Assembly: GCF_045037415.1 (NCBI RefSeq)
Contig: NZ_CP173438.1
Strand: one strand, 5' to 3'
Source: Escherichia coli
GTDB taxonomy: Bacteria > Pseudomonadota > Gammaproteobacteria > Enterobacterales > Enterobacteriaceae
DNA length: 64,000 nucleotides
Below are positions 1 through 36,004 of this stretch, in pieces; position 1 is the stretch's first letter; every line of letters begins with the position of its first letter. A program made the translations under genes and the position numbers. Below the pieces are notes generated by a model, which did not search any database, was not told the DNA's origin, and saw only the letters and a list, made by a program, of their open reading frames with translations.

Positions 1-1
1 G

Positions 2-37
2 CTCACCACCAGCATTCGCGGGCTGGGGCTGGGCTGA
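2..37 (+). CDS. lfiP: 3' end of FliP-family export protein (Flag-2 LfiP), partial at window edge
   Basis: Open frame ending at TGA 35-37 immediately upstream of the FliQ-like gene; call rests on conserved fliP-fliQ-fliR order only, too short to judge by sequence. Confidence 0.3.
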   Translation, partial: LTTSIRGLGLG

Positions 38-39
38 TT

Positions 40-312
40 ATGTTGACCGTAGACGTCGCCGCCGACATTGTCGCCAGCGGCATTAAAGTAGTGATTTTGC
101 TGGTTTCGGTACTGGTGGTGCCAAGCCTGCTGGTCGGCCTGCTGGTGAGCGTGTTCCAGGCGGTGACGCAGATTAACGAACAGACCCTGAGCTTTTTGCC
201 AAGGCTGATTGTCACGCTGGTGGTGCTGGGCGTGTGCGGCAAATGGATGATTATCCAGTTGCATGATCTCTGCATTCACCTGTTTACCCAGGCCGCGTTG
301 CTGGTTCATTGA
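40..312 (+). CDS. lfiQ: FliQ-family flagellar export apparatus membrane protein (Flag-2 LfiQ)
   Basis: 90-aa hydrophobic ORF with FliQ-like core (SVFQAVTQINEQTLSFLPRLIV); precedes FliR/FlhB/FlhA homologues. Confidence 0.8.
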   Translation: MLTVDVAADIVASGIKVVILLVSVLVVPSLLVGLLVSVFQAVTQINEQTLSFLPRLIVTLVVLGVCGKWMIIQLHDLCIHLFTQAALLVH

Positions 313-313
313 G

Positions 314-1096
314 ATGCGCACAAGCGACGTTACGCAACTGATGGATCTGGCGCTGGGGCTGTGGTTTCCCTTCGTGCGCATTATGGCGTTTCTGCGCTAT
401 ATGCCGGTGCTGGATAACAGCGCCCTGACCGCGCGCGTGCGGATTATTTTGTCGCTGGCGCTGGCGATCATCATCACGCCGTTGATCCCCCATCCCATTC
501 CCCACAATCTGCTATCGCTCAACAGCCTGATCCTGACGGTGGAGCAAATTTTATGGGGCATGTTATTCGGGCTGATGTTTCAGTTTTTGTTTCTGGCGCT
601 ACAACTGGCCGGGCAAATTCTCTCGTTCAATATGGGGATGAGCATGGCGGTGATGAACGACCCGAGCAGCGGCGCATCGACCACCGTGCTGGCGGAGCTA
701 ATCAACGTCTACGCGATCCTGCTGTTTTTTGCCATGGACGGGCATCTGCTGCTGGTAAGCGTGTTGTACAAGGGCTTCACCTACTGGCCGATTGGCAACG
801 CCCTGCATCCGCAAACCCTGCGTACCATCGCGCTGGCCTTTAGCTGGGTGCTGGCGTCGGCATCGCTGCTGGCGCTGCCGACCACTTTTATCATGCTGAT
901 TGTGCAGGGCTGCTTTGGCTTGCTCAACCGTATTGCGCCGCCGCTGAACCTTTTTTCTCTTGGCTTTCCGATCAACATGCTGGCGGGGCTGGTCTGTTTT
1001 GCCACCCTGCTCTACAACCTGCCGGATCACTATCTGCATCTGGCGAATTTTGTCTTACAACAACTCGACGCGCTGAAAGGTCACTATGGCGGATAG
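314..1096 (+). CDS. lfiR: FliR-family flagellar export apparatus membrane protein (Flag-2 LfiR)
   Basis: Polytopic membrane ORF of FliR size; ATG at 314 two nt after the lfiQ stop (the ORF track starts upstream at 263); 11-nt overlap with the next gene. Confidence 0.8.
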   Translation: MRTSDVTQLMDLALGLWFPFVRIMAFLRYMPVLDNSALTARVRIILSLALAIIITPLIPHPIPHNLLSLNSLILTVEQILWGMLFGLMFQFLFLALQLAGQILSFNMGMSMAVMNDPSSGASTTVLAELINVYAILLFFAMDGHLLLVSVLYKGFTYWPIGNALHPQTLRTIALAFSWVLASASLLALPTTFIMLIVQGCFGLLNRIAPPLNLFSLGFPINMLAGLVCFATLLYNLPDHYLHLANFVLQQLDALKGHYGG

Positions 1097-2225
1097 CAGC
1101 AGCGAAGAAAAAACAGAGAAACCCTCGGCGCAAAAGCTGCGTAAAGCGCGTGAAGAGGGGCAACTGCCGCGCTCGAAGGATATGGGGCTGGCGGCGAGCC
1201 TGTTTGCGGCGTTTGTGGTGATCTCCAGCAGTTTTCCGTGGTATGCCGATTTTGTGCGCGAGAGCTTTATCAGCGTGCATCAGTATGCGCAGGAGATTAA
1301 TAACCCGCAGGTGATCGGCCAGTTTCTGCGCCATCACCTGTTAATTCTCGGCAAGTTTATCCTCACCTTGCTGCCGATGCCTGCTGCCGCGCTGCTCTCT
1401 TCGCTGGTGCCCGGCGGCTGGCTGTTTCTGCCAAAAAAAATCCTCCCGGATTTCAGCAAAATCAGTCCGTTAAAAGGCATTGGGCGGCTGTTTTCCAGTG
1501 AACATCTGGCGGAAACGGGAAAGATGACGGTGAAGTCTGTGGTGGTGCTGGTGATGCTGTGGGTAAGCCTGCGCAATAACTTTGCCGCCTTTCTCAGCCT
1601 GCAGGCGCTGCCGTTCAAACTGGCGATAAATGACGGTTTATCGCTCTACGCCAGCGTGATGCGCAACTTTGTCATTCTGTTTATCTTCTTCGCGCTTATC
1701 GACGTGCCGCTGGCGAAAGCCCTGTTCACCAAAGGGCTGAAGATGACCAAACAGGAGCTGAAAGAAGAGTACAAAAATCAGGAAGGTAAGCCGGAAGTGA
1801 AGGCGCGTGTGCGGCGACTGCAACGGCAACTGGCGATGGGGCAAATCCGCAAAGTGGTGCCGAAAGCCAACGTGGTGATCACCAACCCGACCCACTACGC
1901 CGTGGCGTTACAGTATGACCAGTCGCGCGCCGCCGCGCCGTTTGTGGTGGCAAAAGGCACCGATGAAATCGCCCTCTATATTCGCCAGGTCGCCACGGAG
2001 AATCAGGTGGAAGTGGTCGAGTTCCCGCGGCTGGCACGCTCGGTTTACTACACCACCCAGGTGAACCAGCAAATTCCGTTTCAGCTTTACCGGGCCATCG
2101 CCCACGTTCTGACCTACGTCCTGCAAATGAAACACTGGCGCGAGGGCGCACAGCCGCGCCCGGCCCTGAACAGACATATTTCCATTCCCAAAGAGGTGCT
2201 TAAACTGGATGGCGAAAACAACTAA
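1086..2225 (+). CDS. lfhB: FlhB-family export switch protein (Flag-2 LfhB)
   Basis: 379 aa; N-terminal KTEKPSAQKLRKAREEGQ and NPTH autocleavage motif (VVITNPTHYAVAL) typical of FlhB/SctU. Confidence 0.85.
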   Translation: MADSSSEEKTEKPSAQKLRKAREEGQLPRSKDMGLAASLFAAFVVISSSFPWYADFVRESFISVHQYAQEINNPQVIGQFLRHHLLILGKFILTLLPMPAAALLSSLVPGGWLFLPKKILPDFSKISPLKGIGRLFSSEHLAETGKMTVKSVVVLVMLWVSLRNNFAAFLSLQALPFKLAINDGLSLYASVMRNFVILFIFFALIDVPLAKALFTKGLKMTKQELKEEYKNQEGKPEVKARVRRLQRQLAMGQIRKVVPKANVVITNPTHYAVALQYDQSRAAAPFVVAKGTDEIALYIRQVATENQVEVVEFPRLARSVYYTTQVNQQIPFQLYRAIAHVLTYVLQMKHWREGAQPRPALNRHISIPKEVLKLDGENN

Positions 2226-4302
2226 ATCGTTCCTTGCGCTGCTGCGCGGCGGCAATCTCGGCGTGCCGCTGGTCATACTGTGTATTCTGGCGATGGTTAT
2301 TCTGCCGCTGCCGCCTGCGCTGCTGGATATTCTGTTCACCTTCAACATTGTGCTGGCGGTGATGGTACTGCTGGTGGCGGTGTCGGCGAAACGACCGCTG
2401 GAATTCAGCCTGTTCCCGACCATTTTGCTGATCACCACCTTAATGCGCCTGACGCTTAACGTCGCCTCTACGCGCGTGGTGCTGTTGCACGGGCATCTCG
2501 GCGCGGGCGCGGCGGGTAAGGTGATAGAGTCGTTTGGTCAGGTGGTGATCGGCGGCAACTTTGTCGTCGGTTTCGTGGTGTTTATCATCCTGATGATCAT
2601 CAACTTTATCGTCGTCACCAAAGGGGCCGAGCGTATTTCCGAGGTTTCTGCCCGCTTTACCCTGGACGCGATGCCCGGCAAACAGATGGCAATTGACGCC
2701 GATCTTAATGCCGGGTTGATCAACCAGGCACAGGCGCAGACCCGGCGCAAAGATGTTGCCAGCGAGGCCGATTTTTACGGCGCGATGGACGGGGCATCGA
2801 AGTTTGTGCGCGGGGATGCCATCGCCGGGATGATGATTCTGGCGATCAACCTGATCGGCGGCGTCTGTATTGGGATCTTCAAATACAACCTGAGCGCCGA
2901 TGCTGCCTTCCAGCAATATGTGTTGATGACCATCGGCGACGGCCTGGTGGCGCAGATCCCTTCCCTGCTGCTCTCCACCGCGGCGGCGATTATCGTCACC
3001 CGCGTCAGCGACAACGGCGATATCGCCCATGACGTGCGTAATCAGTTGCTGGCAAGCCCGTCGGTTCTCTACACCGCCACTGGAATTATGTTCGTGCTGG
3101 CGGTGGTGCCGGGAATGCCGCATTTCCCGTTCCTGATGTTCAGCGCCCTGCTTGGTTTTACCGGCTGGCGGATGAGCAAGCGCCCGCAAGCGGCGGAGGC
3201 GGAAGAGAAAAGCCTCGAAACGCTAACCCGTACGATGACAGAAACCAGCGAGCAACAGGTCAGTTGGGAAACTATTCCGCTGATCGAACCTATCAGTTTA
3301 AGCCTCGGCTACAAACTGGTGGCGCTGGTGGATAAAGCGCAGGGTAATCCGCTCACCCAGCGGATTCGCGGTGTACGGCAGGTGATATCCGACGGTAACG
3401 GAGTTCTGCTGCCGGAGATCCGTATTCGGGAAAACTTCCGCCTCAAGCCCAGCCAGTACGCCATTTTCATCAACGGCATTAAGGCTGATGAAGCGGATAT
3501 TCCGGCGGATAAACTGATGGCCCTGCCCTCCAGCGAAACCTACGGCGAGATTGACGGCGTACTGGGGAATGACCCGGCGTACGGGATGCCGGTCACCTGG
3601 ATTCAACCCGCGCAGAAAGCGAAGGCGCTGAATATGGGGTATCAGGTGATCGACAGCGCCAGCGTGATTGCCACCCATGTGAATAAGATTGTGCGCAGCT
3701 ATATTCCTGACCTCTTTAACTATGACGATATTACGCAGCTGCATAACCGTTTGTCGTCGATGGCACCGCGACTGGCGGAAGATTTGAGCGCGGCACTCAA
3801 TTACAGCCAGTTGCTGAAAGTGTACCGGGCGCTACTGACTGAAGGCGTTTCCCTGCGCGATATCGTCACCATCGCCACCGTGCTGGTCGCCAGTAGTGCG
3901 GTGACCAAAGATCATATTCTGCTGGCGGCAGATGTGCGCCTGGCGCTGCGGCGCAGCATTACCCATCCGTTCGTTCGCAAGCAGGAGCTGACGGTGTATA
4001 CGCTGAATAATGAGCTGGAAAATCTGCTGACCAACGTGGTGAATCAGGCGCAACAGGGCGGGAAAGTGATGCTTGATAGCGTGCCAGTGGACCCGAATAT
4101 GCTCAACCAGTTCCAGAGCACGATGCCTCAGGTGAAGGAGCAGATGAAAGCGGCGGGGAAAGATCCGGTGCTGCTGGTGCCGCCGCAACTGCGCCCCTTG
4201 CTGGCGCGCTACGCAAGGTTGTTTGCGCCGGGGCTGCATGTGCTGTCGTATAACGAAGTGCCGGATGAGCTGGAGTTGAAGATAATGGGGGCGTTGATGT
4301 AG
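2209..4302 (+). CDS. lfhA: FlhA-family export gate protein (Flag-2 LfhA), full length
   Basis: 697 aa with N-terminal TM domain and FlhA/SctV cytoplasmic domain; overlaps lfhB by 17 nt; lies beside rayT as in the described Flag-2 locus. Confidence 0.85.
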   Translation: MAKTTKSFLALLRGGNLGVPLVILCILAMVILPLPPALLDILFTFNIVLAVMVLLVAVSAKRPLEFSLFPTILLITTLMRLTLNVASTRVVLLHGHLGAGAAGKVIESFGQVVIGGNFVVGFVVFIILMIINFIVVTKGAERISEVSARFTLDAMPGKQMAIDADLNAGLINQAQAQTRRKDVASEADFYGAMDGASKFVRGDAIAGMMILAINLIGGVCIGIFKYNLSADAAFQQYVLMTIGDGLVAQIPSLLLSTAAAIIVTRVSDNGDIAHDVRNQLLASPSVLYTATGIMFVLAVVPGMPHFPFLMFSALLGFTGWRMSKRPQAAEAEEKSLETLTRTMTETSEQQVSWETIPLIEPISLSLGYKLVALVDKAQGNPLTQRIRGVRQVISDGNGVLLPEIRIRENFRLKPSQYAIFINGIKADEADIPADKLMALPSSETYGEIDGVLGNDPAYGMPVTWIQPAQKAKALNMGYQVIDSASVIATHVNKIVRSYIPDLFNYDDITQLHNRLSSMAPRLAEDLSAALNYSQLLKVYRALLTEGVSLRDIVTIATVLVASSAVTKDHILLAADVRLALRRSITHPFVRKQELTVYTLNNELENLLTNVVNQAQQGGKVMLDSVPVDPNMLNQFQSTMPQVKEQMKAAGKDPVLLVPPQLRPLLARYARLFAPGLHVLSYNEVPDELELKIMGALM

Positions 4303-4520
4303 GCATCCGGCATCGGTGCATATTGCCGGATGCGGCGTGAACGCCTTATCCGGCCTACGGGTGAGCACGGTTTTGTCGGCATGATAAGACGCGTAGCGGC
4401 GCATCTGGCACCGGTGCACAACTGCCGGATGCGGCGTGAACGCCTTATCCGGCCTACGGGTGAGCGCGGTTTTGTCGGCATGATAAGACGCATCTGCGTC
4501 GCATCAGGCATCGGCGCACA
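4303..4520. repeat. REP/BIME cluster (at least two GCCGGATGCGGCGTGAACGCCTTATCCGGCCTAC units plus inverted partners)
   Basis: Repeated palindromic REP consensus visible directly; located between the lfhA stop and the rayT 3' end. Confidence 0.85.
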
Positions 4521-4521
4521 G

Positions 4522-5019
4522 CTATAAAATGATACGCTCCCCAGCACTAAAATCCGTTACGTCCTCCGCCCAATCGATGGGATATAACCCTCGCGCGACA
4601 TCGCGATGAAACGTTGAGAATGGCCAATCACTCACTTGCTTTACCCAACCATGTTTTACTGGATTTATATAAATATAATCAACATGATGGCGATAGTCTT
4701 GGGTATTGCGAATGGCATGCTCCCAAAAACGCGGTTGCCAGATATTTTTCAATCCACAAGCATGGGTAAATTGCTTTTTAATTTCCCGCCAGCGCGAGGA
4801 AAAATCATCATCGCCTTCAGGTAATGTCCATATGCAATGCATATGCTCCGGCAAAACTACCCAAGCGTTAATTTCAAAAGGTCTGTCTCGCTTAACGTTA
4901 ATAATAGCGTTACGGAGCGTCTGAAACTGGGTGGTCAAAAGTTGGTTTCGACGATTCTGTAAATTTACCGTGAAAAACCAGGTTCCCCCCTTGATGTAAT
5001 AACGACGATATTCAGACAT
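4522..5019 (-). CDS. rayT: REP-associated tyrosine transposase (RAYT, IS200/IS605-like HUH protein)
   Basis: 165 aa with HUH-type HMH motif and conserved Tyr region (YIYINPVKHGWV); flanked on both sides by REP sequences. Confidence 0.85.
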   Translation of the reverse strand: MSEYRRYYIKGGTWFFTVNLQNRRNQLLTTQFQTLRNAIINVKRDRPFEINAWVVLPEHMHCIWTLPEGDDDFSSRWREIKKQFTHACGLKNIWQPRFWEHAIRNTQDYRHHVDYIYINPVKHGWVKQVSDWPFSTFHRDVARGLYPIDWAEDVTDFSAGERIIL

Positions 5020-5198: not shown

Positions 5199-5953
5199 AA
5201 AATCGTCTCTTCCGTCAAAATCCGCCGCGCGCCCAAAAAATGATCCTGCCAGAAAGGTTCAGCTAACCGACTTACCCGAATGGTTTCCCCGGTGCGCGGT
5301 GACTCGATAAACTGACCGTCTCCAAGATATACGCCCATATGGTCGGCTATCTCACGGCTGTGGATATGGAAAAACAGCAAATCTCCCCGGCGCAGGTCGT
5401 TATTCGCCACAATCGTTGCCCGACGGTAGTGGTACATCTCATTGGCCGTGCGCGGGAGCTTAGCCTCAAGGATCTTGTTGTAGGCATAAAAAACCAACCC
5501 GCTACAGTCGAAACCTTTATCAGGCCGCGTGCCCCCCCAGACATAAGGCTTGCCAAGTTGCTGTTCCAGGCGGTGAATCGCCACTTCGGTGATGTTATGC
5601 AGGTGGTTGCTGCTGAGGAAATGATTGTTTTCCGCCAGCGCCTGCCAGCGTCTGTCGTTCGCCTTGAGCGGCGCAGGAAACCATTCTGGATGCTGTTTTA
5701 TCTGCTCCCGATTATGCTGGCGCAGCGCCCTTCTGCTTTTAGCATTGCCTTCCACAATATAGCTGGCCTGCTTTTTCAGATGGGTTTGGTACTGTTTTAA
5801 TAAACGCGCACGGTTTTGCATCCGCTGGCGGGCGGCGTAGCTAAAAGAGATATGTGATGTGGTGGCGCTGGCGAGTAAAGGGAGCAAAACGCATAACGAA
5901 AACACGCCTGGATGCAGAAATCTGCCGTGCAAGAACGAAGACATGAAGGACAT
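5195..5953 (-). CDS. yafL: NlpC/P60-family lipoprotein (peptidoglycan endopeptidase-like)
   Basis: 252-aa ORF with signal peptide and C-terminal NlpC/P60-like region (DCSGLVFYAY ... HMGVYLGDGQFIES); exact start uncertain. Confidence 0.75.
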   Translation of the reverse strand: MSFMSSFLHGRFLHPGVFSLCVLLPLLASATTSHISFSYAARQRMQNRARLLKQYQTHLKKQASYIVEGNAKSRRALRQHNREQIKQHPEWFPAPLKANDRRWQALAENNHFLSSNHLHNITEVAIHRLEQQLGKPYVWGGTRPDKGFDCSGLVFYAYNKILEAKLPRTANEMYHYRRATIVANNDLRRGDLLFFHIHSREIADHMGVYLGDGQFIESPRTGETIRVSRLAEPFWQDHFLGARRILTEETIL

Positions 5954-6255
5954 AAACCAGCTGAATGAAGGTGAGAATTTTAAAAGACCGGAGGAGTAAA
6001 CGGGATTATTAATTGCTTATTTGCATATTACTATTGCGGTTTCATAATCTTAGGAAATAAGAAATAAATCTACAATCCATGCGCTTTTCGGACTCTTGAA
6101 AACTGCACCTGTGCTAAATTTGTAAACCCTGCGCCGACAGGCTTGCGTAAAACTCTTTTGGTGATAATGTGAGCCTTCCAAATCCAGACTATTCCGATTT
6201 GGGATTCATTTTGCCGTCCTGGCGTGTGTAACCGTTTTATCAAGGAATAAGCAGT

Positions 6256-6996
6256 ATGCGTAAAATCGCATTAATTCTTGCGATGTTGTTGATCCCATGC
6301 GTTTCGTTTGCCGGTTTGCTGGGCAGCAGTAGCTCGACCACGCCAGTGAGCAAAGAGTATAAGCAGCAGTTGATGGGATCCCCTGTCTACATCCAGATCT
6401 TCAAGGAAGAACGTACGCTCGATCTCTACGTCAAAATGGGCGAGCAATATCAACTGCTCGACAGCTATAAAATCTGTAAATATTCCGGCGGCTTAGGGCC
6501 AAAACAGCGTCAGGGCGATTTCAAAAGCCCGGAAGGGTTTTATAGCGTCCAGCGTAATCAGTTAAAACCAGACAGCCGTTACTACAAAGCGATTAATATT
6601 GGATTCCCAAACGCCTATGACCGTGCGCATGGTTATGAAGGGAAATACCTGATGATTCACGGCGATTGTGTTTCCATCGGCTGCTACGCGATGACCAATC
6701 AGGGTATTGATGAGATCTTCCAGTTCGTTACTGGTGCGCTGGTGTTTGGTCAGCCGAGCGTGCAAGTGAGTATTTATCCGTTCCGCATGACCGACGCCAA
6801 TATGAAGCGCCATAAATATTCCAACTTTAAGGACTTCTGGGAGCAACTGAAGCCGGGCTACGACTACTTTGAGCAAACCCGTAAGCCACCGACCGTTTCT
6901 GTGGTCAATGGCCGTTACGTGGTCAGCAAGCCGTTAAGCCACGAAGTTGTGCAGCCACAACTGGCATCAAACTACACGCTCCCCGAGGCAAAATAA
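6256..6996 (+). CDS. yafK: L,D-transpeptidase-family periplasmic protein YafK
   Basis: 246 aa with signal peptide and YkuD-type motif ([12 protein letters not shown]); position between yafL and yafJ. Confidence 0.8.
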
Positions 6997-35803: not shown

Positions 35804-36004
35804 GTGGAAAAATATTGTGAGTTAATACGCAAGCGGTACGCGGAAATCGCCAGCGGAGACTTAGGATACGTTCCGGACGCGCTGGGCTGCGTTTTGAAAG
35901 TGCTGAATGAAATGGCTGCCGACGACGCCCTTTCTGAGGCTGTCAGGGAAAAAGCAGCATACGCTGCGGCAAACTTACTGGTGAGCGATTATGTCAATGA
36001 ATGA
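35804..36004 (+). CDS. yaeP: Small UPF0253-family protein YaeP
   Basis: About 66 aa from a GTG start after AGGAGG ([18 protein letters not shown]...). Confidence 0.7.

Follow-up and report, generated by a model that had tools for sequence, protein, structure and literature searches.

Short overlaps between the export-gate genes lfiR, lfhB and lfhA in the Flag-2 (lateral flagellar) locus of Escherichia coli

Introduction

The described Flag-2 locus of E. coli has the same genes, gene order and chromosomal site as the DNA studied here, and nothing substantive differs between them; the gene nomenclature used here agrees with PMC6993521. In the Flag-2 literature accessible to us the junction overlaps are not discussed, and the word "overlap" occurs 0 times in PMC6993521. 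The Flag-1 system of E. coli K-12 is arranged in the operons flhBAE and fliLMNOPQR. There, flhB and flhA overlap on the same strand by 8 nt, compared with 17 nt in Flag-2 here, and overlaps of 4 and 1 nt are found at fliM/fliN and fliO/fliP, respectively. The gaps fliP/fliQ and fliQ/fliR are 9 and 7 nt wide in Flag-1 and 2 and 1 nt in the present locus, and in Flag-1 fliR and flhB belong to separate operons about 57 kb apart, whereas they are overlapping neighbours in Flag-2. Over 1,695 prokaryotic species the median distance is +3 nt for FliR-FlhB and +13.5 nt for FlhB-FlhA (PMC10666635, Table S4).

Gene pairs translated by termination-reinitiation (Huber et al. 2019, 2023; PMC12548453) are, like the genes studied here, co-directional, placed on one transcript and coding for parts of a single complex; likewise, a few nt separate the downstream start from the upstream stop and the initiation region lies inside the upstream coding sequence. 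Reinitiation requires overlaps or very short gaps, pairs of this kind are enriched for complex subunits, and native E. coli gene pairs at such distances were strongly coupled in experiments (PMC10666635). The range treated as predictive for reinitiation by Huber et al. is -8 to +10 nt, and flhB-flhA is listed there as a -8 nt pair encoding complex subunits (PMC10666635). Overlaps in E. coli rank -4 > -1 > -8, while the remark on longer overlaps being rare concerns H. volcanii (PMC10666635). Canonical reinitiation pairs have distances of -4 (ATGA) and -1 (TGATG), then -8; the -11 and -17 nt of the present locus are outside the characterised -8 to +10 nt, and coupling is here judged from geometry. 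The core of the export gate consists of FliP5Q4R1 and one FlhB, and natural FliR-FlhB fusions (Clostridium; NF009411) as well as an engineered Salmonella fusion hold the same two proteins adjacent at 1:1 (PMC7064499).

Results

Locus and gene content

The DNA analysed, called the window below, is a stretch of 64,000 nt. Positions 1-4302 were found to be the 3' end of the Flag-2 operon, encoding the type III export-gate proteins FliQ, FliR, FlhB and FlhA. The following features were recorded, where SD stands for Shine-Dalgarno sequence.

1-37, plus strand: 3' end of lfiP (lfiP', FliP homologue), stop codon TGA at 35-37; sequence read, PGAP fliP ends at window position 37
40-312, plus strand: lfiQ (FliQ, 90 aa); open reading frame list, PGAP, Pfam PF01313 with E=5.7e-24
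314-1096, plus strand: lfiR (FliR, 260 aa); PGAP start at 314, TIGR01400 score 176.9 against a cut-off of 168.6
1076-1080, plus strand: weak SD-like AAAGG within the final lfiR codons, separated from the lfhB ATG by 5 nt; dG -3.4 kcal/mol (background mean -2.9)
1086-2225, plus strand: lfhB (FlhB, 379 aa), NPTH autocleavage motif intact; PF01312 over the full length, E=1.8e-108
1086-1096, plus strand: lfiR/lfhB overlap, 11 nt, ATGGCGGATAG; sequence read, PGAP
2191-2198, plus strand: strong embedded SD AAGAGGTG for lfhA, formed by the LfhB K-E-V codons; dG -7.1 kcal/mol
2209-4302, plus strand: lfhA (FlhA, 697 aa), final gene of the operon; TIGR01398 score 775.8 against a cut-off of 772.1, PF00771 E=3.4e-243
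2209-2225, plus strand: lfhB/lfhA overlap, 17 nt, ATGGCGAAAACAACTAA; sequence read, PGAP
4324-4491, strand not given: two 69-nt REP-type repeat units, 3' of lfhA and adjoining rayT

The lfiMNPQR-lfhBA operon of an intact ST131-type Flag-2 locus is represented here by its distal half. Window 1-2589 was 100% identical to ST131 genomes, and genome NZ_OZ040963.1 matched the window with 100% identity over 1-4400 and 99.97% over 4001-54000. Its PGAP gene limits equal those of the window (fliP to 37, fliQ 40-312, fliR 314-1096, flhB 1086-2225, flhA 2209-4302), and two E. coli genomes with about 95% identical alleles gave equal limits in their own locus coordinates. The genes fliP-fliQ-fliR-flhB-flhA share a strand and occupy the end of the Flag-2 locus that adjoins rayT and yafL; PGAP annotation of the near-identical genome places rayT at the equivalent of window 4522-5019, and lafU and dinB are found there at the opposite end of the locus. 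The REP-type units at 4324-4491, which are separate from the overlaps, show where the operon ends.

All four proteins were placed in their expected export-gate families. LfiR contains a full-length Bac_export_1 domain (PF01311, E=6.3e-58; FliR/SctT) and LfiQ a full-length Bac_export_3 domain (PF01313; FliQ/SctS), the latter scoring 79.6 with the FliQ model TIGR01402, under its cut-off of 88.9. Residues 7-345 of LfhB correspond to Bac_export_2 (PF01312; FlhB/SctU export switch), with a score of 345.0 in the NCBIfam equivalog TIGR00328, slightly under the cut-off of 349.25, and residues 26-688 of LfhA correspond to FHIPEP (PF00771; FlhA/SctV). M1 and N267-P268-T269-H270 of LfhB were invariant in the alignment. 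An lfhB allele with an in-frame deletion removing the NPTH site (P0053) occurs in some E. coli. Both LfiR and LfhB match the fusion model NF009411, and compared with the FliR-FlhB fusions they are here two separate open reading frames in different frames, each with its own stop and start. The LfiQ protein, WP_000958542.1, was unchanged among E. coli alleles differing by about 5% in DNA.

Overlaps and start codons

The lfhB ATG at 1086-1088 precedes the lfiR stop TAG at 1094-1096, and the lfhA ATG at 2209-2211 precedes the lfhB stop TAA at 2223-2225, so that overlaps of 11 and 17 nt arise; sequence reading and the list of open reading frames gave the same limits. The lfiQ ATG (40-42) follows the lfiP stop after 2 nt. 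These three distances had been reported by the first-pass annotation and were borne out by sequence reading and PGAP; the lfiQ/lfiR junction, TGA-g-ATG with a 1-nt gap, was absent from it. The overlaps are genuine, with the downstream ATGs sitting within the last codons of the upstream gene, and they are an ordinary, already annotated and already known feature of tightly packed operons.

The first-pass annotation had named one way in which the overlaps could be dismissed, namely as artefacts of choosing upstream in-frame starts. The true starts would then lie downstream, at ATG 1182 (M33) for lfhB and at GTG 2263 (V19) or ATG 2293 (M29) for lfhA. Public cluster P0011 (340 E. coli sequences, 347 aa) does start lfhB at M33, GTG 2263 is preceded by an SD-like match of -5.0, and the SD-like match before ATG 1182 is the better one (-5.5), but with 0-nt spacing. 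Against such reassignment, the 32 residues before M33 hold the most conserved N-terminal motif of FlhB, with K9, E11, K12, K17, K20, R22 and G25 of LfhB invariant and a second-codon-position diversity of 0.005. A start of lfhA at V19 or M29 would lose the N-terminal tail of 15-20 residues ahead of TM1, or part of TM1 itself, which are present across intact loci. PGAP picks 1086 and 2209, and in lineages whose dS is saturated a start codon is still kept at the homologous position or close to it. We therefore regard downstream starts as extremely unlikely.

The comparison behind these statements comprised 80 loci, one per species, spanning Enterobacterales, Pseudomonas and Betaproteobacteria. 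Wherever the locus was intact, the start codon stood no more than a few codons away from its homologous place, and it was ATG at both junctions except for one GTG per junction. For LfhA the start codon was kept in 79/79 loci (ATG in 78, GTG in 1), and with two exceptions it was no further than two codons from where it was predicted. The N-terminal peptide MA[DE]..K[ST]EK of LfhB was kept in relatives down to 43% identity. Diversity at codon positions 1/2/3 was 0.06/0.005/0.30 in lfhB 1097-1181 and 0.135/0.06/0.26 in lfhA 2226-2292, which fits coding in both cases. ATG 263, from which lfiR would overlap lfiQ by 50 nt, was rejected as the lfiR start: the pattern of variation in 263-309 matches the reading frame of lfiQ, not that of lfiR.

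Conservation of the junctions among relatives

Abutting or overlapping junctions are kept from Enterobacterales to Betaproteobacteria. Overlaps were found at fliR-flhB in 75 of the 80 loci and at flhB-flhA in 72 of 79. The fliR-flhB overlap was 11 nt in 20/80 loci and 8 nt (ATGGCTGA) in 21/80, the two lengths differing by a single change, GCT to GCG, which is synonymous in lfhB; among clades this junction took lengths of 26/11/8/4/1/0/+2 nt. At flhB-flhA overlaps of 17 nt (18 loci), 14 nt (26), 11 nt (7), 8 nt (4) and 4 nt (17) were counted, together with gaps of +2 nt in six loci and +11 nt in one. Overlap length shifts by one-codon steps or single point changes, and in both proteins the overlaps coincide with the termini, where conservation is lowest. 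In lineages whose dS is saturated, intact junctions ranged from -26 to +2 nt at fliR-flhB and from -17 to +11 nt at flhB-flhA. The flhB-flhA pair of Pseudomonas is separated by 2-nt gaps and does not overlap, so overlap as such is dispensable. Overlap length is not fixed; conservation concerns the abutment and the presence of a ribosome-binding site inside the upstream gene. Within Flag-2, 10 of 39 same-strand junctions overlap. The first-pass annotation had called tight packing typical of export-gate components, and this holds in part: the 8-nt flhB/flhA overlap of Flag-1 agrees with it, the prokaryote-wide medians and the fliP/fliQ and fliQ/fliR gaps of Flag-1 do not.

Ribosome-binding sites and RNA signals

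The three starts differ in their SD sequences. There is essentially no SD at lfiR (duplex energy -2.2 kcal/mol), a weak one at lfhB, where purine-rich AAGG/GAGG stands upstream of the start in most related loci listed, and a strong one at lfhA. The Glu codon of the LfhB K-E-V, part of the lfhA SD, was GAG in 56/56 distinct Enterobacterales sequences, compared with a GAG share of 41% among the other Glu codons of lfhB. From this GAG to the chosen lfhA ATG the distance was 13 nt in 50 of the 56 sequences and 16 nt in the other six. The non-overlapping Pseudomonas loci have GAA at this codon, and in Betaproteobacteria GAGGT occurs at a similar distance from the flhA ATG, at a different protein position. 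The spacing of SD and ATG at lfhA is 10-12 nt, which is more than the usual E. coli optimum. Synonymous diversity was lowest at both ends of lfhB (rank 8/368 and 14/368, 12-codon windows). Median SD strength was weakest at fliR in 4/4 groups and strongest at flhA in 2/3 enterobacterial groups; other clades have strong SDs ahead of flhB, and the non-enterobacterial group had a weak median at flhA. The idea that SD strength everywhere mirrors subunit stoichiometry holds only partly, flhB SDs being strong in several clades.

Several other signals were considered. Segments of 90 nt at the junctions folded like shuffled sequences (z -0.06 at R/B, +1.02 at B/A, +0.44 at Q/R and -0.81 at P/Q), which does not agree with coupling through unfolding of a stable RNA structure that hides the ribosome-binding site. 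On the question of a single LafK/sigma-54-dependent transcript from lfiM to lfhA, no internal promoters or terminators above chance were found in window 1-4700, and the sigma-54 consensus TGGCAC-N5-TTGC had no match in the lafK-lfiM spacer of an E. coli locus (L001) and was overall below chance there. A programmed frameshift yielding an LfiR-LfhB fusion was rejected, no slippery sequence being present on reading the 11-nt overlap; the LfiR-LfhB "fusions" in databases are an internal deletion (P0007, the sole one from E. coli) and a truncated MAG contig (L021).

Selection and decay

The comparison of dN/dS with orthologues, proposed in the first-pass annotation, gave values for the four genes of 0.00-0.09 against other Escherichia alleles, over dS of 0.07-0.35, and of 0.04-0.23 against Citrobacter, Phytobacter, Enterobacter and Pseudescherichia. 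By codon position (1/2/3), nucleotide diversity was about 0.1/0.03/0.35. The four genes have clearly evolved under strong long-term purifying selection.

The locus is kept in 1289-1291 of 5426 complete E. coli genomes (1289 being those that share at least 80% of window 1-4400) and deleted in about 76%, with the same Flag-2 deletion present on at least three allele backgrounds; at species level Flag-2 is lost en bloc. In strain H1 an IS1-associated deletion took most of Flag-2 together with the 5' end of lfiM, and lfiN to lfhA are still intact there with the 11- and 17-nt overlaps unchanged. The lfhA remnants of K-12 type, annotated as pseudogenes, matched intact alleles at 100% identity along 1704 nt and gave dN/dS of 0.03-0.05, like intact alleles; being identical to these, they were uninformative as a relaxed-selection control. 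No pseudogene flag stands anywhere in the 40-kb Flag-2 locus of the near-identical genome. The ST131 strain EC958 did not express Flag-2 under the tested conditions, showing neither LafA protein nor motility, and relative to strain 042 it is without maf-5, motY and lafWZ (PMC4637896).

Discussion

We consider it likely that the overlaps, real as they are in the distal half of lfiMNPQR-lfhBA, belong to junctions which couple translation along a single mRNA, and that the genes have been held by purifying selection, which is no proof of present function. The case for coupling is one of geometry. The junctions are co-directional and their stops and starts overlap or lie at most about 10 nt apart (-11, -17, +1 and +2 nt), though -11 and -17 exceed the -8 limit of Huber et al. 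Translation of both lfiR and lfhB would fall mainly to ribosomes that have terminated on the upstream gene and then reinitiate locally, because lfiR is without an SD 1 nt past the lfiQ stop, and lfhB has a weak SD and an ATG 8 nt before the lfiR stop. For lfhA, additional de novo recruitment of ribosomes is predicted because of the strong, strictly conserved GAGGU SD within the LfhB K-E-V codons in an unstructured region. Such an SD would fit a need for more copies of FlhA, of which the export gate holds nine, than of FliR or FlhB. The order P-Q-R-B-A together with coupled translation may favour co-assembly of the FliP5Q4R1-FlhB1 core.

The overlaps could also have arisen neutrally, through compaction of the genome and drift of stop codons; each gene would then initiate independently from a ribosome-binding site belonging to it, and functional coupling would be absent. 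The free variation of overlap length between clades agrees with this, as do the single substitution, synonymous in lfhB, that separates 8 from 11 nt, the 2-nt flhB-flhA gaps of Pseudomonas and the positive median spacings of both pairs across prokaryotes; lfhA is preceded by its own strong SD, and with 10 of 39 Flag-2 junctions overlapping the trait is generic. Yet intact junctions never widen to a typical intergenic spacer across saturated-dS lineages, synonymous variation is unusually low at both ends of lfhB, and in this clade lfiR is without an SD and that of lfhB is weak, in addition to the strong coupling measured for native E. coli pairs at such distances (PMC10666635). On this evidence we find purely neutral overlaps rather unlikely and prefer coupled translation.

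A different question is whether the genes are a cryptic relic in this strain, with selection gone and an intact appearance owed to recent inactivation or disuse. The silence of EC958, a member of the clone that carries this allele, points that way (PMC4637896), as do the absence of the locus from about 76% of complete E. coli genomes, the recurrence of the deletion on at least three allele backgrounds, the NPTH-less lfhB allele and the demonstrably dead remnants that retain intact reading frames, overlaps and low dN/dS. Against it, expression in EC958 was assayed under few conditions only (PMC4637896), no Flag-2 gene of the near-identical genome carries a pseudogene flag, the 2.6-kb segment of window 1-2589 was full-length and aligned as a single piece in 58 genomes out of 60 taken at even spacing from the 1291, and dN/dS of 0.00-0.09 holds at dS of 0.07-0.35 within Escherichia. 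A relic seems quite unlikely to us. The first-pass annotation had argued from tight packing to purifying selection rather than decay; long-term purifying selection was found, but packing does not discriminate, as dead remnants keep it. Since overlaps, intact reading frames and low pairwise dN/dS persist in dead remnants, they do not suffice to call a Flag-2 locus functional. Strong purifying selection on these genes is shown, but neither it nor the packing proves that the system is at present expressed, or works, in this strain.

For the coupled junctions a further, more tentative step concerns the C-terminal P-K-E-V of lateral-flagellar FlhB. It is possible, though doubtful, that this motif is kept mainly as an RNA signal, the embedded GAGGU tracking the flhA start, at a constant distance in most Enterobacterales and from another protein position in Betaproteobacteria; the design of the junctions (no SD at fliR, a weak one at flhB, a strong one at flhA) would then set an unequal output of export-gate subunits, FliR and FlhB being needed as single copies and FlhA in many.

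The overlaps themselves matter little beyond housekeeping. The RefSeq starts of lfhB and lfhA are confirmed, and older annotations with lfhB from M33 are wrong. Short overlaps, intact reading frames and low pairwise dN/dS call for caution in method, being no proof of Flag-2 function. The codon-locked embedded SD of lfhA would be a tidy example of dual coding and could serve to tune FlhA expression, and the abutting or overlapping fliR-flhB-flhA junctions are now documented as an ancient trait of this flagellar lineage.

Gene content and identity of the segment

The stretch 1-4302 belongs to the E. coli Flag-2 (lateral flagellar) locus, where it forms the distal part of cluster 1, and contains the genes listed below.

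Features of the segment (window coordinates)
35-37, + strand, stop TGA closing the lfiP 3' end; sequence reading
40-312, + strand, lfiQ; ORF with FliQ match
314-1096, + strand, lfiR; ORF with FliR match
1086-2225, + strand, lfhB; ORF with FlhB match
2209-4302, + strand, lfhA; ORF with FlhA match

The four products gave full-length Pfam matches to FliQ, FliR, FlhB and FlhA. All of them also matched flagellar equivalogs in NCBIfam, where the curated cut-offs were passed by FliR and FlhA and narrowly missed by FlhB (345 vs 349) and FliQ (80 vs 89). The near-identical genome NZ_OZ040963.1 shared 100% identity with the window over 1-4400 and 99.97% over 4001-54000, and ST131 genomes were 100% identical to it over 1-2589. 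Downstream of lfhA follow REP elements and then rayT, yafL, dpaA, yafJ, and lpcA. The interval from lfhA to rayT, a REP-associated transposase gene, (4303-4491) contains two REP-type units of 69 nt (4324-4392 and 4423-4491; 99% identical, 99 nt apart) and an 18-nt inverted repeat. In the same region of H1 (strain DP033) the matched record span exceeded the query by ~1.4 kb, with an IS1397 transposase beneath the match, and in strain EC1 lfhA is followed by an ISEc31 remnant and a group II intron. The toxin-antitoxin pair dinJ-yafQ sits between yafL and dpaA (yafK) in strain 52F4, at the equivalent of window ~5953-6256; it is missing from this spacer in the window and in NZ_OZ040963.1.

Junctions and start codons

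The lfhB ATG (1086-1088) lies 8 nt ahead of the lfiR TAG (1094-1096), giving an 11-nt overlap, and the lfhA ATG (2209-2211) lies 14 nt ahead of the lfhB TAA (2223-2225), giving a 17-nt overlap. Gaps of 2 nt and 1 nt separate lfiP from lfiQ and lfiQ from lfiR, respectively. The overlap coordinates in the first-pass annotation were exact to the base and are the same in the PGAP annotation of NZ_OZ040963.1; two ~95% identical alleles were annotated with equal gene limits in their own locus coordinates.

Overlaps of this kind could be artefacts of wrongly chosen upstream starts, but on checking, the lfhB and lfhA starts held. LfhB M1 was invariant across 13 aligned orthologues with identity down to 54%, and so was conserved the motif behind it (K9, E11, K12, K17, K20, R22, G25). 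The N-terminus MA[DE]..K[ST]EK.. was present in the intact loci of a survey of 80 loci, one per species, with identity down to 43%. Over the part of lfhB that follows the lfiR stop and precedes the alternative ATG at 1182, diversity by codon position was 0.06/0.005/0.30, thus this part is plainly coding. The start at M33 in P0011, a public cluster of 340 sequences, was rejected as a mis-start, since the residues ahead of it are conserved and coding. The lfhA start codon was found in 79 of 79 loci (78 ATG, one GTG), with two exceptions no more than two codons from the predicted position; a 15-20-residue tail comes next, and then the conserved TM1 sequence, which in this clade reads ...PLVILCILAMVILPLPP. 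A longer lfiR ORF from ATG 263 was ruled out, as variation over 263-309 fits the lfiQ frame (0.09/0.04/0.33 by codon position) rather than that of lfiR.

Conservation of the junctions

The survey covered Enterobacterales, Pseudomonas, and Betaproteobacteria, and the order fliR-flhB-flhA was kept in all 80 loci.

Distances between neighbouring genes in the survey (nt, negative values are overlaps)
fliR/flhB: -26, 1 locus; -11, 20; -8, 21; -4, 3; -1, 30; 0, 1; +2, 1; disrupted, 3
flhB/flhA: -17, 18 loci; -14, 26; -11, 7; -8, 4; -4, 17; +2, 6; +11, 1

From this spread, the abutment or overlap of the three genes is ancient, while the exact overlap length is not. The 11-nt fliR/flhB form differs from the widespread 8-nt form, ATGGCTGA, by one GCT to GCG change, which is synonymous in lfhB and turns the lfiR TGA into GGA, so that lfiR terminates at the following TAG. 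In the flhB/flhA series of 17, 14, 11, and 8 nt the steps are entire codons, located at the variable ends of the two proteins. Only in Candidatus Fukatsuia symbiotica and Serratia sp. M24T3 was the flhB N-terminus disrupted together with the fliR/flhB junction; the apparent gaps there measured +91 and +171 nt. One of the two lives as an insect endosymbiont, and such bacteria are expected to have decaying genomes.

For comparison, K-12 Flag-1 has an flhB/flhA overlap of 8 nt and gaps of 9 nt (fliP/Q) and 7 nt (fliQ/R), and among 1,695 species the median spacing is +3 nt for FliR-FlhB (q1 -3.1) and +13.5 nt for FlhB-FlhA (q1 -3.35) (PMC10666635 Table S4). The Flag-2 junctions are therefore tighter than average, yet of the same kind. 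Ten of 39 same-strand junctions in the Flag-2 locus overlap, five by at least 8 nt. Elsewhere in the window, non-flagellar genes also overlap by more than 4 nt: yaeP/rof by 14 nt on the same strand (~35990-36003, from the annotation of a comparison locus, L091) and metN/metI by 8 nt.

Translation signals

The candidate Shine-Dalgarno (SD) sequence of lfhA, AAGAGGTG at 2191-2198, has a duplex energy of -7.1 kcal/mol with the 16S rRNA tail, against a background mean of -2.9 kcal/mol with 12% of positions at or below -6. That of lfhB is AAAGG only (-3.4 kcal/mol), and lfiR essentially lacks one (-2.2 kcal/mol). This pattern of SD strength was only partly conserved across groups. The lfhA candidate is encoded by the K-E-V codons of LfhB, whose Glu codon was GAG in 56 of 56 distinct enterobacterial sequences, whereas GAG accounts for just 41% of Glu codons elsewhere in these genes. 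The GAG lies 13 nt ahead of the chosen ATG in 50 of the 56 and 16 nt ahead in six; five of these six have another in-frame ATG, at 13 nt. Pseudomonas loci have no overlap at this junction, another SD, and GAA at the corresponding codon; in Betaproteobacteria a GAGGT is spaced similarly from the ATG but falls elsewhere in the protein alignment (..LSEV..). Synonymous diversity in lfhB was minimal at both ends (12-codon windows ranking 8 and 14 of 368). RNA structure at the junctions showed no excess over shuffled sequence (z = -0.06, +1.0, +0.4, -0.8), and no internal promoter- or terminator-like sites were found above chance.

Selection and decay

Pairwise dN/dS of the four genes was 0.00-0.09 against other Escherichia alleles (dS 0.07-0.35) and 0.04-0.23 against Citrobacter, Phytobacter, Enterobacter, and Pseudescherichia, with codon-position diversity of about 0.1/0.03/0.35. 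The annotation of NZ_OZ040963.1 has no pseudogene flags over the whole Flag-2 locus, and a 2.6-kb segment was full-length in a single aligned piece in 58 of 60 genomes sampled evenly from 1291 positives. These values speak for long-term purifying selection. However, annotated pseudogenes, the K-12-type lfhA remnants, gave dN/dS of 0.03-0.05, the same as intact alleles, and were 100% identical to intact alleles over 1704 nt (AVS0093 to the window allele, YPE3 and O157:H16 to the 52F4 allele). In strain H1 an IS1-associated (IS1A) deletion took most of Flag-2 including the lfiM 5' end; the start-proximal region is gone, while lfiN-lfiP-lfiQ-lfiR-lfhB-lfhA stay as intact ORFs, overlaps included. 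Since dead remnants keep ORFs, overlaps, and low dN/dS, purifying selection does not follow from tight packing, as had been argued at first pass, and evidence for such selection fails to tell living genes apart from those that died recently. The claim of selection over decay is thus right for the past of these genes and unproven for the present strain. In the ST131 strain EC958, neither LafA nor Flag-2 motility was observed under tested conditions (PMC4637896).

The Flag-2 locus is absent from about 76% of complete E. coli genomes (see also PMC6993521). The K-12-type deletion begins at 2590/2599, keeping the lfhA 3' part (2590-4302; four loci, L087-L090). It occurs on at least three lfhA allele backgrounds, two remnants matching intact alleles with 100% identity and the third being distinct, which points to a recurrent or very recent event at one site and not to a single ancient one. 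At the H1 deletion junction, prfH/rtcB remnants are joined to the truncated lfiM. Outside the window, a 300-aa LfhB of some E. coli (P0053 and similar sequences) has lost 79 codons (residues ~211-289) in frame, and with them the NPTH autocleavage site; P0053 is recorded on 65 contigs, one of 5.2 Mb, and presumably represents a non-functional allele that circulates in some lineages. In P0007 (570 aa, one E. coli sequence), an internal deletion fused LfiR to ~residue 226 in frame with LfhB from ~35, an accidental FliR-FlhB fusion that recalls the natural clostridial one.

Possible allele exchange around Flag-2

The Flag-2 segment of Pseudocitrobacter (P. vendiensis, P. faecalis, and a further locus, L005, L006, and L004) was 93-95% identical to E. 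coli in DNA, with dS of 0.16-0.30, in the range found between E. coli alleles; the neighbouring yafL region was 88-89% identical. This pattern suggests recent exchange of Flag-2 between the genera, or a taxonomic mislabel. The E. coli Flag-2 alleles L002 and L003 differed from window 40-4302 by dS of 0.07-0.28, and typical E. coli core-gene divergence is far below this. Such values are consistent with the published recombination hotspot at Flag-2 in ST131 (PMC4637896). In the lafK-lfiM spacer, outside the window, an ~85-nt element is present once in the E. coli locus L001 (811-894) and in five tandem copies upstream of lfiM in P. faecalis. Escherichia sp. MOD1-EC7003 has several copies of a different segment, the REP region downstream of lfhA (L001 7303-7520).

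Probable translational coupling at lfiR-lfhB-lfhA

The lfiR-lfhB-lfhA overlaps are real, were described correctly at first pass, and are ordinary. The first account of Flag-2 came from strain 042 (Ren et al. 2005, as cited in PMC4637896), a survey across Enterobacterales followed in 2020 (PMC6993521), and flhB/flhA is already listed as a -8 nt pair encoding subunits of a complex (PMC10666635). Genes, coordinates, and overlaps are in RefSeq, and nothing departs from known biology; what is added, the codon-locked SD within LfhB and the toggling overlap length, amounts to small refinements.

Termination-reinitiation in native E. coli gene pairs requires overlaps or very short gaps, and overlapping or closely spaced pairs are 4.5-fold enriched for subunits of complexes (PMC10666635; review PMC12548453); the range tested for reinitiation was -8 to +10 nt, outside of which the -11 and -17 nt junctions fall (PMC10666635). 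We consider translational coupling the most likely reading of the arrangement. Most likely, lfiR and lfhB would be translated largely by ribosomes fresh from upstream termination, and such reinitiation at lfiR/lfhB would fit the single copies of FliR and FlhB in the FliP5Q4R1-FlhB1 core (PMC7064499). Ribosomes would most likely reach lfhA both by reinitiation and by SD-driven initiation at an open site, and co-translational assembly would be favoured by the P-Q-R-B-A gene order.
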